In this document: positions 3,604 through 64,000 of the stretch, one piece after another | Layout of the letters: the number at the start of each line of letters is the position of its first letter | Numbering within the stretch: position 1 is the stretch's first letter | Sequence record: ON229909.1 | Strand: one strand, 5' to 3' | From: Escherichia phage vB_EcoM_CE1 | DNA: 64,000 nt | Made by a program: the position numbers and the translations under genes | The notes under the pieces: generated by a model | Told to the model about the DNA's origin: nothing | What the model saw: only the letters and a program-made list of their open reading frames with translations | Databases searched by the model: none

Positions 3604-6600
3604 TTATTTTAACAACGATTTAACTAATGCTTTAAGTTCTTCGATTTCTGATTTAAGTTCTGCAATTTCTGCAGTATGCTCATTGATTGCGGCTGTATTT
3701 AAACCAATTACACCGTTATAGTTCAAACGAAGTAAAGCTTCGCCATCAGGGTCACCTTCAACTAATTCTGGCAAAATAGCTTGAACTTCTTGAGCTATCA
3801 AACCGGCGTTAGGTTCCCATTTCTGATTGCCTTCTTCATCTAGGCCTCGCTTCTGCATATAAGTGTAACCGTTAATTTTAGAAAGCTTCTGAGAAGCATT
3901 TTCAAATTTAACGAGGTCTTTTTTAACGCGAATATCAGAACGGACATAAACATCACGGACAAACGTTGAATAGCTATCATTTGCCTGAACGAGATGCCCA
4001 TGAGAAACAATTGCTTTACCGGCTTCTGTCCAAAAAGCACCGTATGAATCCCATAACCCCTCATGTGCCAGACGTTGAGACCCCCATGACGCAATATGAA
4101 CACCATCGGCAAACATGTTAATACGACCATCACCACCATGAACTAATCCTGTATCATTATCACCAATAGCAAGACACGCGCCGCCCCATACAGGGTCACC
4201 ACCGCCAGCTGATAATCTTCCAGTTTTAACCATGTTAGGAACATACATAACTCCATTGTGGTGGAATTCATAGATAGCTTGTGGGTCATGGCCATTTTCC
4301 TGGTTACCTACACGAATAATACCTTGTGCCCAGTTATTAGGAATGCGTCGCATACCGAAATCAACACCAGATACGTATCCTTCATTCGTAATAACAGATT
4401 TTCCTTTAATAATAGGATAATAACTATCATTACCGACGTAGCCAAAATCCACAAATACGGGAGCTTCTTGACGCCATTGATTTCCCCAATCGCCAGCCTG
4501 GTGACTGGTCCAGACAGAGCCATTAATAAAAAGTCGGTCCCTATTAAAATTAAATGTTCCTTGACCTTGAGGAGAAAGCGCTATTTCGCCGTTATTTGTT
4601 ATGTATACACCGCCTTGTGTAATGTAACTGTAAAAACCTAGACCATTATCGCCGCCGCCTTTGCCTATATACCAATTATTTGTACCACCTACATCACTAC
4701 GGATGTGCGATGAAGCGCCCACGCCTGCAGTTAAAACAAGGGCATCATTTCCAGCAGATAAAGTCAACCTACCGGTCATTGTATCGCCTTCTTTCGAAAC
4801 ACGAGTCGCAATAGCATCACGAATATTTGTAGTATCACCAGCAGAAGTAAACGGTTTCCAGATATCAGACCAGATGTTACCATTGCGAGCAATAGTAGCT
4901 TCACCTCCGCCGACAGAAACGTTATCTGGGAAGTTAACAGTACCGTCTTGATTAAAACGAGACGTATGGCCTTGTGAACCATCTTCTTTCAGATGATGAA
5001 TAACGAATGTACCCGAATTAATTTCAGTACCTAAAGACCAAACGCATTTACCGTTTAAGAATTTCTGTTTAACAATAGGATAATATTTACTTACCGCGTC
5101 ATCATCAATTTCTTGGAAAACAGGAGCTGCTTGTGCATATTGAATATCGTAACCGCCTGCACCTGCACCATGTCCACCGAATTTAATATAGCCGTTCGCA
5201 GCGAACGTATTGTAACTTGATTGTAAATCTGGAATAGTAACTTTACCGGTATCTAAAGCCATACTAAACGGGCGAAGTGGACCGATATCGCCATGTTTAC
5301 CTTCACCGTAAGCAGTTGGAATAATATGAAGACTGCCTTCTGAACGTCTAAAAATAGCTCCATAATCTGCATTCCAAATGCGAAGACCATTTACAGCATT
5401 TGTCGCGATTTCACCGGCTGCGCTGATTGTACCGTCAAATGTAGCATTTTTTACTACTGTCAAGTTTTCATTAACAATCTGGGTGCCATTTATAACCGAT
5501 TCGACTTTACCTGCAGTTGTTCGTTGAATATAGCTCATCCAACTAGTTGCGTCAGAAATTTCCATGACATTTTTACGAGTACCACCTACCGTAGTAAAAG
5601 TGTCACCCCAAACTTTGAGCTCTATATTATCAACTGAACTATATCCTATAGTATTTCCTTTAAAAAGCACAGTTGAAGCATTATTTCTACCATCGATATT
5701 AACAGAACCACCAATAACGTCAATATTACCAGGAGTGACTAATAAACCGCCGTGAGTATTAATGTTTGTAGTACCCTTACCGCGGAAATAATGATGATAA
5801 TTACCGCCTTGGTAATATCCTAAAAGAGTCTGACCATCTCCAAACGCGTTATTATCGTGATATGTCACGACAGTAGCAAGAGCATAGTTTTCAGTCGGAG
5901 GAGTAGTTAAATCTGTTCCATTAGTAGAATATCCAGCTACAAATTTTCTTAGGCTAGTTGTTTCGCTAGGGCTAAATAAAAATGTTTTCGTTCCATTATT
6001 GACGCTGAAATAATATCCATCCTGATGCCATTTTAGCCCGGTATCATTATCGCCAAGAGAAATTGAAGCAGTCCCTAATTCAGAGTATCCTTTAGAACCA
6101 CCTGGAAGACCTACAGAAATAGAATGACCGGCTTTCAATCCACCGGCCCAGTTAAACGACCAAAGATAAGTGTCTAAGCCATCTCCGGAATACCAGGTTA
6201 TTCCGTCATTAACATTAACTTCGTGGAAAATACCTGCTCCTACAGCATTTCGCATAACACGGAGGTGGTTAATAGCCGTTTCGCCTTCTTCAAATGGAGT
6301 ATTATTTGCTAATGAAGATATATCATAATCGCCCGTCTTCTTCCCATTTGTAATAACTTTATTGGTATAAATTACCGGAGTTGATACAGATTTCCACCCA
6401 AAAACTTCTGGTGAAGAAAACAAACCATTTCCATTAAAAGCGAAAGTGCTTTCTGAACCAGCTTTGTAATCTTGAACTCTAATATTAAGAACTTGTGTAG
6501 TTAATCCATCATTAGCAGGAGAAAAAATGATTCCACGTTCACGGTCAGCTAAATCATGAAAACGAACATGTGCTGTACCTGAACTTTTTGTAATAAGTTC

Positions 6601-57569: not shown

Positions 57570-59194
<1,625 letters not shown>

Positions 59195-59205
59195 TTAAGC
59201 AGGAT

Positions 59206-59219
59206 GGGGATTTCTCCCC
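59206..59219 (-). terminator. hairpin after gene 19
   Basis: GGGGA-GAAA-UCCCC on minus strand. Confidence 0.45.
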
Positions 59220-59226
59220 ATTCATT

Positions 59227-59718
59227 TTATTCCCAATAATCGAGAGCGAGAGTTACTTCAAAGGTTTGGATTTCATTGTTTGAATCCCAATCTAATTGAA
59301 GTTCACCCACGTTGGTAGGCCACAGGCCTTTAATTTCGACTTCTTTTGTTACAGTTTTAGCGTCACGAGCATATTGGCGTACAATAGCACTCTTTTTATA
59401 CTCTGCTGGTTTTCCACCAGTAATTTCGTTTCCTTGCCCAGCAGCAATGCTTTGCCAATCAACAAACTTCTGACGTGCATCATGCGCCTCATCATTCATT
59501 ACTGTAATAGTCCAGTCATCGAATGTACGATCGCCTGCTACGTTAATTTTACGGTTCATAAATCCGACTGGAATTTTTTCTACAATACCAGCTGGTAAAG
59601 CAGTGGCTTTGCATTGAAACGTAAAATTTTGTCCAAGATAAGAAATTTCTACTTGGAATAAGTTAGGTCGAGCAAAATCACCAGATTCAAACGCTCGTGT
59701 TACATCATCTACAAACAT
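59227..59718 (-). CDS. 19: gp19 tail tube protein
   Basis: 163 aa as in T4. Confidence 0.95.
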   Translation of the reverse strand: MFVDDVTRAFESGDFARPNLFQVEISYLGQNFTFQCKATALPAGIVEKIPVGFMNRKINVAGDRTFDDWTITVMNDEAHDARQKFVDWQSIAAGQGNEITGGKPAEYKKSAIVRQYARDAKTVTKEVEIKGLWPTNVGELQLDWDSNNEIQTFEVTLALDYWE

Positions 59719-59732
59719 ATTAGCCTCTGTAG

Positions 59733-59740
59733 TATTTATA
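59733..59740 (-). promoter_or_regulatory. late promoter TATAAATA for gene 19 (proximal)
   Basis: TATAAATACTACAGAGGCTAATATG on minus strand. Confidence 0.5.
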
Positions 59741-59791
59741 TCCCTATGTTTAACCTAGGGCATATAGAATTAAAGAATTAAGGATATAGTG

Positions 59792-59799
59792 TATTTATA
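59792..59799 (-). promoter_or_regulatory. second late-promoter-like element (distal)
   Basis: ATATAAATACAC on minus strand, 59 nt upstream of the proximal copy. Confidence 0.4.
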
Positions 59800-59800
59800 T

Positions 59801-59818
59801 GGCCTGCCGAAACAGGCC
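59801..59818 (-). terminator. hairpin after the HNH ORF
   Basis: GGCCUG-UUUCGG-CAGGCC on minus strand. Confidence 0.45.
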
Positions 59819-59825
59819 TTTAGAA

Positions 59826-60431
59826 TCATTCTAGTAAATCCCAAAGATCTACGCTATTTCTTTTTGACTTTTCTCGGTTAGATTCCCAAGTGATTATTTC
59901 TAAATTTTTTACGCTTGCTATAATTTCCGGCGGAATTAAATTATCAAATCCATATTTGATAGATACTTTATGATCGAGTTGGTAAGCACCTTCTACACCG
60001 CACACTCCTATTTTATCAGCATTCGGCCATTTTGACCAAATTTTTCTTATTTTAGCTGACTTAGTTATAGAATGAACTCTACTAGCATATAATGCAAACT
60101 CTTTTCTTTTACCAGTCCATCGAGGGTGTTTATCGCCTCTTTGCCATGGTCTGCTTATTCCGGATTGAACTTCCGAATTTTTAATAGCAACTTGTTTAAT
60201 GCTACATTTTCTACATGCATGTGTAGGTGTTCTATTTAAAAGCTGAATGCTTCTACTAAATTTAATACCGCACAAATCACATTTAGCGTCAACTATTTTA
60301 TTACTATTCTTTGGCATTAATTCTATTGGAACAGATACTGTATCATGATATGATACTTTATATCCTAGAATTGTCGACCACATTTTTGAATGATTTCTTG
60401 GTTTTATTGTAACAAACTTAGAAATAATCAC
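59826..60431 (-). CDS. putative HNH-family endonuclease with zinc ribbon, inserted between genes 18 and 19
   Basis: track ORF 59826..60470 (214 aa); likely start is GTG at 60431 after GAGGAAA; CDLCG...CRKC zinc-ribbon-like motif and LDHKVSIKYGFDN...NLEIITWESNREK HNH-like motif; no gene here in T4. Confidence 0.6.
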   Translation of the reverse strand: MIISKFVTIKPRNHSKMWSTILGYKVSYHDTVSVPIELMPKNSNKIVDAKCDLCGIKFSRSIQLLNRTPTHACRKCSIKQVAIKNSEVQSGISRPWQRGDKHPRWTGKRKEFALYASRVHSITKSAKIRKIWSKWPNADKIGVCGVEGAYQLDHKVSIKYGFDNLIPPEIIASVKNLEIITWESNREKSKRNSVDLWDLLE

Positions 60432-60448
60432 TTGTTTCCTCGAGAATA

Positions 60449-60462
60449 GGGGCCGAAGCCCC
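60449..60462 (-). terminator. UUCG hairpin after gene 18
   Basis: GGGGC-UUCG-GCCCC on minus strand. Confidence 0.5.
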
Positions 60463-60474
60463 ACAATCAATCAA

Positions 60475-62454
60475 TTAACCTGCAAGACCAGTTAACTCAT
60501 CGAAATCTGCACCAGTAGCAGTTGCGACGAAATTAAGTTGGATATAATTTATACTGCGCGCCGGTTGGATGTAGAATGTTGCAACAAACTCATTTCTATC
60601 AATTACTGACGGAGTGTTATTTGTTGTATCGCAAACTACACGATATTCATAAATTCCACCGAGAGCTTTAATTCCCTGTAAGTACTGGGCAGTTTCTGTG
60701 CGGAATGATGAACGAGTAAACGCGTTGTTTAATTCGAACAAACGATATTTTGAACTACGTCCGATATTCGTTTTCAACATATTAAACAGACGACGAACGT
60801 TAATACGATCAAATGGAGAAGGAACAGAAGTAGCTGTTTTATCACCATACAATACGTAACCATCACCACCTGTACCAGTTACCGGGTTGATAGCTTCTTG
60901 GTATAAACGGTCGCGCTGAGCCTGGCGAGTTTCAATAGCAAGTTTAATAACGTTAAGAATCTGACCACGATTATAACCAGCTGGAGACATCCAAGTCTGA
61001 GATACGTTATCAGTTCTTGCGCATAAACCAGCAATATCAGCTGCTAATGGAACCCAGCGATTGACATCATTATATTTGTCATACTGATATTTGTAGTTAC
61101 CATCAATTGCTGCATAGGTTGAACTGATATTAAAGTTATTATCAGTGTATGAACCTGTTGCGGTTCTCCAATTGACTAAGTTATCAACAGCGCGAGTTAC
61201 AGGAATTCCAACTACAGTTTCGCGCGGTGGTGAGCACAATACTAAGCAATCCTGGCGAGCATCCCCGATTGAAACGACGTGTTTTTGGACAGTAGATGCT
61301 GTTTCTAAAGATTCACCGGCGCAAGAACCAGCAATAAACAACTGAACATCAACGGATTCACGGTCAGCAAAGAAGTCCCAGGCTTCCATTAAATCTCCTG
61401 CTGTTACTTCAGCATTTGATGATAATCCACCAGACAGAGTTAAAATTCCAGAGAAGCCTTCTGGCCAGTTTTGTGCAGTTGCAAAAATATATTCTGAACC
61501 ACCTTTTGCGAAAAAGTCATCGATATAGATGTTACTATCGTAAATATCTTTTTCACCGCGCTTTGTTGAAAGAACAACGCTTTGAACAATAGCATCATTA
61601 CGACGAACTATAATAGCGTACTGTGAATCAGTTTGTGGTCCATATCCAAACACAGTTTTAGCAGTAGATGCACGAGTACCACCGCCTGGATAAATTGGGA
61701 GTAATGCAGAAGCACCTTTTGCATAGTCAGCTTTAGATACTATTTCAATTTCAATTTTATCGCCTAATTCGCCTGGATAAAGCGCTACTACTCCTGGAAT
61801 TCCGTATTTTTCGAGATTTGCTTGAAAGCCAACCTCTGTCATAGCAGCTTCAGCATTTTCAATTTCAGCTAATAAAATACCAGAATCAGTAATAATTTTT
61901 CCAAGAGTTATTACTGCAGCTAAACCAGAGGAAGATGAAGAAATTTCCGCAGTCCAGTTAGAACCTAATTCCGGATATTCACCGACTTCTTTCGCTTTAG
62001 CGATAATTTTTGCGGTAGGAATATTAATTTTCTTAATTTTTCCATCAGCATCTACTTCGGTAATTTTACCTTCCGTTTCAATGTCTTCTGAAACATACTT
62101 AACTGTGATTTTATCTCCAACCGCGTAGTTACTACCTGGAGTAGAAATAGTGTATTCAATATTACCAGCAATCGGAGATGAGTTTTTAGCGGTATCTCTA
62201 TCGACAGCACGCACAACTCGCAAATCATTTCCATATTGTAAGAAATTCATTGCAGACATAAAATAGTCAGCAGTTTCAGCTGTAGGTTGACCAAAAGTAT
62301 TAACTAAATCTACTTCATTTGTAACCTGTTTGATCTGAAAAGCAGGACCCCACTGGAATTTACCGGCCAAAGCTGCTGTACCAGTAGAGTTATTAACCAC
62401 GGTGCTTTGAACCGTAGTTTCTTTGAGCTCAATGCCCGGAGATAATAAAGTCAT
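60475..62454 (-). CDS. 18: gp18 tail sheath protein
   Basis: 659 aa as in T4. Confidence 0.97.
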   Translation of the reverse strand: MTLLSPGIELKETTVQSTVVNNSTGTAALAGKFQWGPAFQIKQVTNEVDLVNTFGQPTAETADYFMSAMNFLQYGNDLRVVRAVDRDTAKNSSPIAGNIEYTISTPGSNYAVGDKITVKYVSEDIETEGKITEVDADGKIKKINIPTAKIIAKAKEVGEYPELGSNWTAEISSSSSGLAAVITLGKIITDSGILLAEIENAEAAMTEVGFQANLEKYGIPGVVALYPGELGDKIEIEIVSKADYAKGASALLPIYPGGGTRASTAKTVFGYGPQTDSQYAIIVRRNDAIVQSVVLSTKRGEKDIYDSNIYIDDFFAKGGSEYIFATAQNWPEGFSGILTLSGGLSSNAEVTAGDLMEAWDFFADRESVDVQLFIAGSCAGESLETASTVQKHVVSIGDARQDCLVLCSPPRETVVGIPVTRAVDNLVNWRTATGSYTDNNFNISSTYAAIDGNYKYQYDKYNDVNRWVPLAADIAGLCARTDNVSQTWMSPAGYNRGQILNVIKLAIETRQAQRDRLYQEAINPVTGTGGDGYVLYGDKTATSVPSPFDRINVRRLFNMLKTNIGRSSKYRLFELNNAFTRSSFRTETAQYLQGIKALGGIYEYRVVCDTTNNTPSVIDRNEFVATFYIQPARSINYIQLNFVATATGADFDELTGLAG

Positions 62455-62482
62455 TTTTAATCCTCTTTAATATGCTTTAATA

Positions 62483-64000
<1,518 letters not shown>

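Follow-up and report, generated by a model that had tools for sequence, protein, structure and literature searches.

ORF19.1, an optional gene between the tail sheath and tail tube genes of T6-like phages, as a probable free-standing homing endonuclease gene of an uncharacterised HNH family

The subject of this work is an open reading frame (ORF) located between gene 18 (tail sheath) and gene 19 (tail tube) in a stretch of 64,000 nucleotides from Escherichia phage vB_EcoM_CE1 (record ON229909.1), referred to here in its whole length as the window. The window belongs to a T6-like Tequatrovirus and carries its late genes on the minus strand. A previous reading of the bare sequence (the original prediction) had proposed that an HNH-type free-standing homing endonuclease gene sits between genes 18 and 19, and this core idea is the best-supported explanation of the data presented below. 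From the comparative evidence, the ORF is rather likely to represent an uncharacterised HNH (His-Me finger) family of free-standing homing endonuclease genes; the gene is real and probably active. The support consists of a real insertion with respect to T4, presence in around 24% of the records with exact borders, alleles that conflict with their flanks and a patch of gene 18 that tracks the presence of the gene; the argument from a duplication at the junction, which was part of the same proposal, did not hold.

The gene itself was already recorded in phage T6 in the 1990s, under the name "ORF19.1", as the earliest member on record; it belongs to a familiar class, of which it is an uncharacterised representative, and does not constitute a new kind of element. 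T6 ORF19.1 is the same gene at the same position, its protein is 98-99.5% identical to that of the window, and its depositors proposed the same GTG start, in a record that gives no function. What is new here is the definition of the family, its fidelity to one locus, the domain-swapped alleles and a testable prediction of the target.

Results

Borders of the insertion and transcription of the ORF

The spacer between genes 18 and 19 is as short in T4 as had been stated, with 116 nt and no ORF. When the window and T6 were compared with T4, a single block of around 648 nt was found right after the TAA of gene 18, in the place of an 8-nt sequence of T4, TACGGTGC. The comparison of T-even genomes that had been proposed as a check thus defined the borders of this cassette, which are resolved to within 1-2 nt and are the same in the 10 aligned carriers out of 10; megablast matches of the T4 junction are split at query positions 61 and 69. 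The following 108 nt, from ATTCTAAAGG to the ATG of gene 19, are base-for-base identical in T4, including the hairpin GGCCUGUUUCGGCAGGCC and both TATAAATA boxes, and the final base of the TGA of the ORF is at the same time the first base of this common spacer. Within the cassette, stop codons in the three frames after gene 18 are followed by a UUCG hairpin, a ribosome-binding site and the ORF, in such a way that the latter stands alone between the stop codon of gene 18 and the promoter spacer of gene 19. A scan of positions 59000-64000 against Rfam gave neither a group I intron nor any other family.

The ORF is present on the minus strand as predicted, with 214 codons from a TTG at 60470 or 201 from a GTG at 60431; the longer version (59826-60470) was dropped in favour of the GTG start. 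The two hairpins said to flank it, GGGGCUUCGGCCCC and GGCCUGUUUCGGCAGGCC, both fold, the second one being a resident of the T4 spacer. Two TATAAATA boxes 59 nt apart were also found where they had been described. As the spacer is identical in the ORF-less T4, both are resident late-promoter-like elements, and the tandem duplication at the insertion junction that they had suggested was ruled out.

No TATAAATA box was detected between gene 18 and the ORF in a pattern search, and no promoter of its own was found in the cassette, where sigma-70-like matches are at chance level. A classical terminator was not found either, the UUCG hairpin having no subsequent run of T; this hairpin, annotated as a putative terminator in the record of phage G2133, is probably a transcript-end or attenuator element. 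Folding of the leader showed nothing significant besides this hairpin that could hide the ribosome-binding site (z -0.5). In the absence of a TATAAATA box in the cassette, the ORF is probably expressed late, from the late transcript of gene 18 by read-through beyond the UUCG hairpin, which may damp it.

Sporadic presence, conflicting alleles and a fixed position

In a census of around 500 Tequatrovirus records, 382 had an uninterrupted T4-type junction and around 117 (about 24%) were occupied, so that about 76% of the records, T4 included, are without the gene. Its presence is therefore sporadic among near-identical genomes, with exactly repeated borders. The T6-type allele was found in 69 Tequatrovirus records, and around 48 carried an allele of the RB5/pSs-1 type, which has the leader and the last 225 nt in common with it at around 90% nucleotide identity and a different middle part. 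The two proteins are 51% identical overall and near-identical beyond residue 130. Among the matches in Klebsiella phages (Jiaodavirus), 39 of around 111 were occupied.

The sequence of the N-terminal domain disagrees with that of the flanking genes. Between the window and pSs-1, gp18 and gp19 share 99% identity, but the figure falls to 34% for the N-terminal domains of the proteins encoded by the insertion; the RB5-type domain has 58-61% identity to the versions from Jiaodavirus and Gelderlandvirus, and the T6-type domain 54% identity to that of Karamvirus. This conflict between the tree of the gene and that of its flanks is of the kind left by lateral movement, and the disagreement points to exchange of the gene between genera, or at least of its modules.

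Searches with the profile of the C-terminal domain gave at least 461 relatives, nearly all of around 190-210 amino acids and without Pfam domains (two of them named McrA by their JGI source), and a translated search found the family in 242 phage records. The gene lies directly after the sheath gene in RB5, pSs-1, Merci (Jiaodavirus), STP4-a (Gelderlandvirus), CHI14 (Winklervirus), Bp7 (Dhakavirus), KMB20 (Karamvirus) and Aeromonas phage AS-zj; Ceceduovirus is also among the genera with the gene in this place. In three metagenomic T4-like contigs it is found between the sheath gene and a gp19-like tube gene, and in Sinorhizobium phage phiM7 it follows the sheath gene; in place of a tube gene of gp19 size, the next gene there encodes a larger tail protein. 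Because all the contexts opened place the gene directly after the sheath gene, the sheath-tube site has to be regarded as the normal home of the family, and the description of this position as non-canonical was abandoned. Enterobacter phage KMB20 has two diverged paralogues, one behind the other, in its sheath-tube interval (hhalign E 1e-33 for the second).

A further ORF of KMB20, between genes 19 and 20, was considered as a member and rejected, being unrelated to the ORF19.1 family.

The protein: nuclease domain, zinc finger and selection

The protein matches PHROG 5104 (E 5e-82), to which PHROG assigns no function. The two motifs noticed in the original prediction, CxxC...CxxC (C51, C54, C73 and C76) and the HNH-like LDHKVS...NLEIITWESNREK, are present and conserved across the family. 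In 42 homologues with 35-68% identity to the protein of the window, D153, H154, N176, N185, R186 and K188 are invariant. According to the predicted secondary structure (strands 150-154 and 177-181, helix 182-188), D153-H154 lie at the end of the first strand, N176 just before the second one and N185-R186-x-K188 on the next helix. The distance from N176 to N185 is nine residues, and both motif and spacing agree with those of His-Me finger nucleases; classical HNH proteins show an N-x8-H/N spacing.

The check proposed with PF01844 and related models gave a negative answer: none of the Pfam HNH models assayed (PF01844, PF13391, PF13392, PF13395 and PF14279) matched the protein of the window, nor did any NCBIfam model, so that the assignment rests on other evidence. 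Over the 42 family members, a single one touched a Pfam HNH model (HNH_4, E 0.078), the rest of the Pfam matches being weak ones to zinc fingers. Sequence searches against the Protein Data Bank (PDB), with the single sequence or with a profile, recovered only zinc-finger proteins, mS66, L31 and spurious leucine-rich-repeat proteins. When the C-terminal domains of 22 members were isolated, 16 matched PHROG 1035, "endonuclease VII" (best E 2.6e-7), and five matched the HNH PHROG 6050 (best E 1.3e-5). The fold resembles that of solved HNH nucleases, the two closest structural matches being 4h9d (Gme HNH) and 5h0o (GVE2 HNH), small phage-type HNH nicking enzymes; in a Foldseek search of the PDB, Cas9 HNH domains ranked at the top without reaching significance. 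From three independent lines, the C-terminal half is assigned as a His-Me/HNH nuclease domain with predicted nuclease activity, and the N-terminal four-cysteine zinc finger is presumed to be the DNA-binding or specificity module.

The structural matches also bring to mind an HNH nuclease associated with packaging, like HK97 gp74 or GVE2 HNH, that would act with the terminase encoded two genes upstream. GVE2 HNH belongs to the class associated with terminases, and gene 17 does lie upstream of gene 18. Proteins of the HK97 gp74 type are encoded beside the terminase genes, occur in all relatives and are needed for packaging of the cos type. The arrangement is not that of HK97 gp74, given that gene 18 separates the ORF from gene 17 and about 76% of the close relatives, T4 among them, are without the ORF, and we regard a packaging role as extremely improbable.

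A zinc-finger nucleic-acid-binding protein that regulates late tail-gene expression, with a non-catalytic HNH-like motif, would be in keeping with the location of the ORF between two late structural genes, adjoining late-promoter boxes, and with the resemblance of its N-terminal domain to the zinc fingers of an RNA-binding mitoribosomal protein. Against it stand the candidate catalytic residues D153, H154, N176 and N185, whose invariance, maintained to 35% identity, speaks for retained catalysis, and the dispensability of the gene in the majority of relatives, where the spacer between genes 18 and 19 is identical in all other respects. A regulator of this kind is thus very improbable.

All of the 10 ORFs checked were intact, and the codon differences among T6-type alleles were overwhelmingly synonymous (synonymous to non-synonymous ratios of 10:1, 13:0 and 14:2, as examples). 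The gene is under purifying selection and is not decaying. Homing endonuclease genes often degenerate once fixed, and many annotators label this product as a hypothetical protein, two points in favour of an inactive, decaying remnant. The intact ORFs, the excess of synonymous changes and the invariant catalytic motif speak against a remnant, as does the fact that the gene is not fixed (around 24% of the records), and this explanation is accordingly held to be highly unlikely.

A recoded patch near the end of gene 18

The junction was aligned with 800 nt on each side in 17 genomes, seven empty, five with the T6-type and five with the RB5-type allele. Nucleotide diversity reaches a peak of 0.18, the highest in the 1.6 kb analysed, in a patch of 46 nt located 49-94 nt before the end of gene 18, with values of 0.003-0.05 in the neighbouring DNA and a nearly invariant spacer. 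The peptide encoded there, ARSINYI(T/Q)LNFV, has a single variable residue (Q/T) in this alignment, so the differences in the patch are nearly all synonymous. The codons for Ile-Asn-Tyr are ATA-AAT-TAT in the aligned carriers of both genera, with the exception of Shigella phage sb2, and ATT-AAC-TAC in T4-like empty genomes. In T4 the patch contains AGC ATT AAC TAC ATT ACC TTA, and in T6 and the window AGT ATA AAT TAT ATC CAA CTT. In an evenly spaced sample of the ranking, the T4-type patch was found in none of 14 carriers versus 30 of 46 empty genomes (Fisher p 1.7e-5), and at most four of the 117 carriers, sb2 and three relatives, have a T4-like patch.

A similar picture was obtained in Jiaodavirus, where carriers and empty genomes differ at 12-13 positions in the matching 45-nt segment, which is the peak of divergence; the segments compared from -770 to -140 show 0-5 mismatches, and the last one 1-6. 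The Jiaodavirus carrier Merci has a string, GCGCGCAGTATAAATTATAT, identical to that of the carriers among E. coli phages. As the variant of the patch tracks the presence of the gene in two genera, the patch is a plausible target site or co-conversion footprint of the nuclease, a candidate derived from polymorphism to which we assign a little less than an even chance.

The hypervariable patch is adjoined by DNA of unusually strong nucleotide conservation: approximately the final 45 nt of gene 18 (60478-60522) and the 108-nt spacer (59719-59826) are nearly invariant in the 17 Tequatrovirus genomes, wobble positions included, and a 23-nt stretch, ACTGGTGCAGATTTCGATGAGTT, is identical in the Klebsiella Jiaodavirus phages too.

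In sb2 (1405-2162 of the sb2 stretch), the patch has changes of its own, among them one from Arg to Ser in the gp18 peptide. A broken nuclease gene was ruled out in this phage, whose ORF is intact, the deposited annotation truncating both gene 18 and the ORF.

Other features of the locus

Over the 2 kb surrounding the insertion, the identity is 99.3% with phage PD112 and 98% with T6. The product of gene 18 is annotated as the tail sheath in both T4 and T6. The features of the locus are collected in Table 1. None of 200 shuffled sequences folded as stably as the hairpin GGCCUGUUUCGGCAGGCC. In the whole window, TATAAATA was counted 18 times versus nine expected from shuffles, which fits the late-gene region of a T4-type phage.

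Table 1. Coordinates of the features of the gene 18-19 region in the window and of the tandem paralogues of phage KMB20
Feature	Position	Strand	Evidence
Gene 18, tail sheath, 659 aa	60475-62454	minus	Pfam Gp18_dom_I, Phage_sheath_1, Phage_sheath_1C and related, E 1e-39 to 1e-15
Gene 19, tail tube, 163 aa	59227-59718	minus	Pfam Phage_T4_gp19, E 2.6e-15; T4/T6 annotation
Inserted cassette with respect to T4, ~648 nt	59827-60474	minus	Three-way alignment of window, T4 and T6
ORF19.1-family gene, GTG start, 201 codons plus TGA stop	59826-60431	minus	ORF list; alignment with T4
Shine-Dalgarno-like GAGGAA, 4 nt 5' of the GTG start	60436-60441	minus	Direct reading of the sequence
UUCG-tetraloop hairpin GGGGCUUCGGCCCC, 5' end of the cassette	60449-60462	minus	-10.8 kcal/mol, z -2.1
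Resident spacer hairpin GGCCUGUUUCGGCAGGCC, directly 3' of the ORF stop	59801-59818	minus	-12.8 kcal/mol, z -3.7
Distal TATAAATA box, T4 late-promoter consensus	59792-59799	minus	Pattern search
Proximal TATAAATA box, 5' of the gene 19 ribosome-binding site	59733-59740	minus	Pattern search
Four-cysteine zinc finger C51-x2-C54...C73-x2-C76, N-terminal domain	60204-60281	minus	
HNH / His-Me finger catalytic core (predicted)	59868-59975	minus	
Hypervariable near-synonymous patch of gene 18, 46 nt	60523-60568	minus	Nucleotide diversity, 17 genomes
Tandem paralogues of phage KMB20	2501-3100 and 3210-3902 of the KMB20 stretch		hhalign

Upstream of gene 18, gene 17 (large subunit of the terminase) is broken in two (62486-64000 of the window, minus strand). 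Its C-terminal part, an ORF at 62486-63871, starts with around 117 amino acids that are absent from T4 gp17, preceded by in-frame stop codons, and these end in ...NNVESHN|CAFIPNF, which resembles the C-terminal end of an intein (His-Asn and then Cys). A Pfam scan of the extra 117 amino acids gave no match. The annotation of PD112 (99% identical) lists in this order the N-terminal part of the terminase, an "endonuclease" of 600 nt and the C-terminal part of the terminase. The insert is present in only 16 of 509 related records, and the window ends inside it. The arrangement resembles a "fractured gene", in which a split intein is accompanied by a free-standing endonuclease gene.

Escherichia phage Bp7 has an ORF annotated as "HNH endonuclease" in the interval from gene 19 to a split gene 20 (3769-4350 of the Bp7 stretch), its only Pfam match being a weak one to the GIY-YIG domain of SegE (E 0.0046). 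The gene 18-20 block seems to be a hot spot for the insertion of nuclease genes in other genera.

Discussion

Proposed mode of action and alternatives

In mixed infections, the enzyme would probably nick or cut the gene 18 DNA of phages without the gene, likely in or near the codons for ARSINYI(T/Q)LNF, 50-95 bp upstream of the insertion point. Repair by recombination, with the genome of the carrier as template, would then transfer the cassette to the recipient together with the markers near it, and carriers would be immune because their patch is synonymously recoded, with ATA-AAT-TAT for ATT-AAC-TAC.

Several points weigh against the homing endonuclease and its candidate target. The carrier-type patch is already found in around one third of the empty genomes. 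Phage sb2, for its part, keeps an intact RB5-type gene beside a T4-like ATT-AAC-TAC patch. Any polymorphism less than 100 bp from an insertion is linked to it regardless of the mechanism, and the p-values overstate the support, because the genomes are interrelated and partly duplicated in the database. That phages so far apart all keep the gene strictly at one locus could instead be a sign of vertical descent in which it was lost repeatedly, and the literature searched contains no cleavage or homing experiment. The observed pattern is nevertheless the one to be expected from an enzyme that cuts in the conserved gene next door, with recoding that protects the carriers and short conversion tracts that give rise to resistant empty genomes.

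The same fidelity to one locus, found in all the lineages examined, very distant ones included, and the strong purifying selection on the gene are what a domesticated or beneficial nuclease without homing would show, one kept to exclude co-infecting relatives, to degrade foreign DNA or to counter host defences, with a position due to old vertical inheritance and frequent loss; genes resembling homing endonucleases can become domesticated (PMC10055350). Such an origin is at odds with the empty junctions with exact borders in about 76% of the Tequatrovirus records, T4 included, with the conflict between the tree of the alleles and that of the flanking genes, with the two tandem copies in Karamvirus and with the adjacent synonymous recoding that tracks the presence of the gene in two genera. 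We consider this explanation unlikely, in the understanding that it overlaps with the homing endonuclease, since the exclusion of competitors is an expected by-product of an active homing enzyme.

Relation to known nucleases and previous annotation

The closest precedents for the mode of action proposed for the homing endonuclease are SegF and SegG of T4. In their intronless homing, the cut is made in a conserved neighbour gene, tens to hundreds of bp away, the flanking sequence is co-converted, and carriers are protected by differences in the target. For ORF19.1 the proposed way of working is alike, but target and transfer are deduced from polymorphism, and the folds are unrelated, GIY-YIG for SegF and SegG and His-Me/HNH for the ORF19.1 protein.

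Gme HNH (PDB 4h9d) and GVE2 HNH (PDB 5h0o) have only 9-19% sequence identity to the ORF19.1 protein and no counterpart of its N-terminal zinc-finger domain; their genomic context and role are also different, the ORF19.1 gene being dispensable. The T4 endonuclease VII family (PHROG 1035) is the best annotated profile match of the C-terminal domain, and both belong to the His-Me finger superfamily, but the ORF19.1 protein has a family of its own (PHROG 5104), a different architecture and a different position, and the gene is not gene 49.

MobA-E of T4 are, like ORF19.1, free-standing genes of the HNH superfamily located between conserved genes, sporadic in close relatives and encoding a nuclease together with a zinc finger (PMC2988022, PMC10055350, PMC13096335). 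In the Mob proteins, an N-terminal HNH_3-type domain precedes a C-terminal zinc-finger/DNA-binding region (PMC10055350), an order that is reversed in the ORF19.1 protein (zinc finger at 51-76, catalytic motif at 153-188). With the Mob proteins compared by description only, the ORF19.1 protein falls outside that family, as it has no match to Pfam HNH_3 and its catalytic motif, H-N-N, has no flanking cysteine pairs, unlike that described for Mob.

Petrov et al. (2010) listed one "other HNH" gene for T6 without giving its name (PMC2993671), and a review of the mobile elements of T4-related phages makes no mention of genes 18, 19 or 19.1 (PMC2988022). No experimental characterisation of the ORF19.1 family was found in the literature searched. 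One Shigella phage record labels the gene "19.1"; in later records it appears as a hypothetical protein and occasionally as "HNH endonuclease", "homing endonuclease", "type II restriction endonuclease", "holin" or "head morphogenesis protein".

Implications

T-even phages are the model system for homing without introns, and here an optional gene of T6 has been mislabelled in many genome records. If it belongs to an HNH homing family whose fixed home is the sheath-tube junction, around 240 phage records could be given a correct annotation, and a family missed by Pfam and NCBIfam would be defined. T4-type phages would then be predicted to be cut in the 3' end of gene 18, and the ATA-AAT-TAT recoding to confer resistance. 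If this prediction holds, the enzyme would add to marker exclusion in crosses of T-even phages and to the local mosaicism of their tail gene block, and the two alleles, with their exchanged N-terminal domains, would illustrate how enzymes of this type acquire a different specificity.

In a broader and more speculative reading, which we regard as rather doubtful, the ORF19.1 family would be a single ancient lineage of homing endonucleases kept at the sheath-tube junction across the whole T4 superfamily and engaged in an arms race against the sheath gene's final 30 codons. Targets would escape by synonymous recoding of the ARSINYI(T/Q)LNF codons, and the nuclease would reply by swapping N-terminal zinc-finger specificity domains between genera. 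The three classes of N-terminal domain, the two Tequatrovirus alleles and the tandem copies of Karamvirus would be the outcome of this reply. If true, this locus would offer a case from nature, resolved at the sequence level, of a nuclease co-evolving with the site that it targets within a core structural gene.

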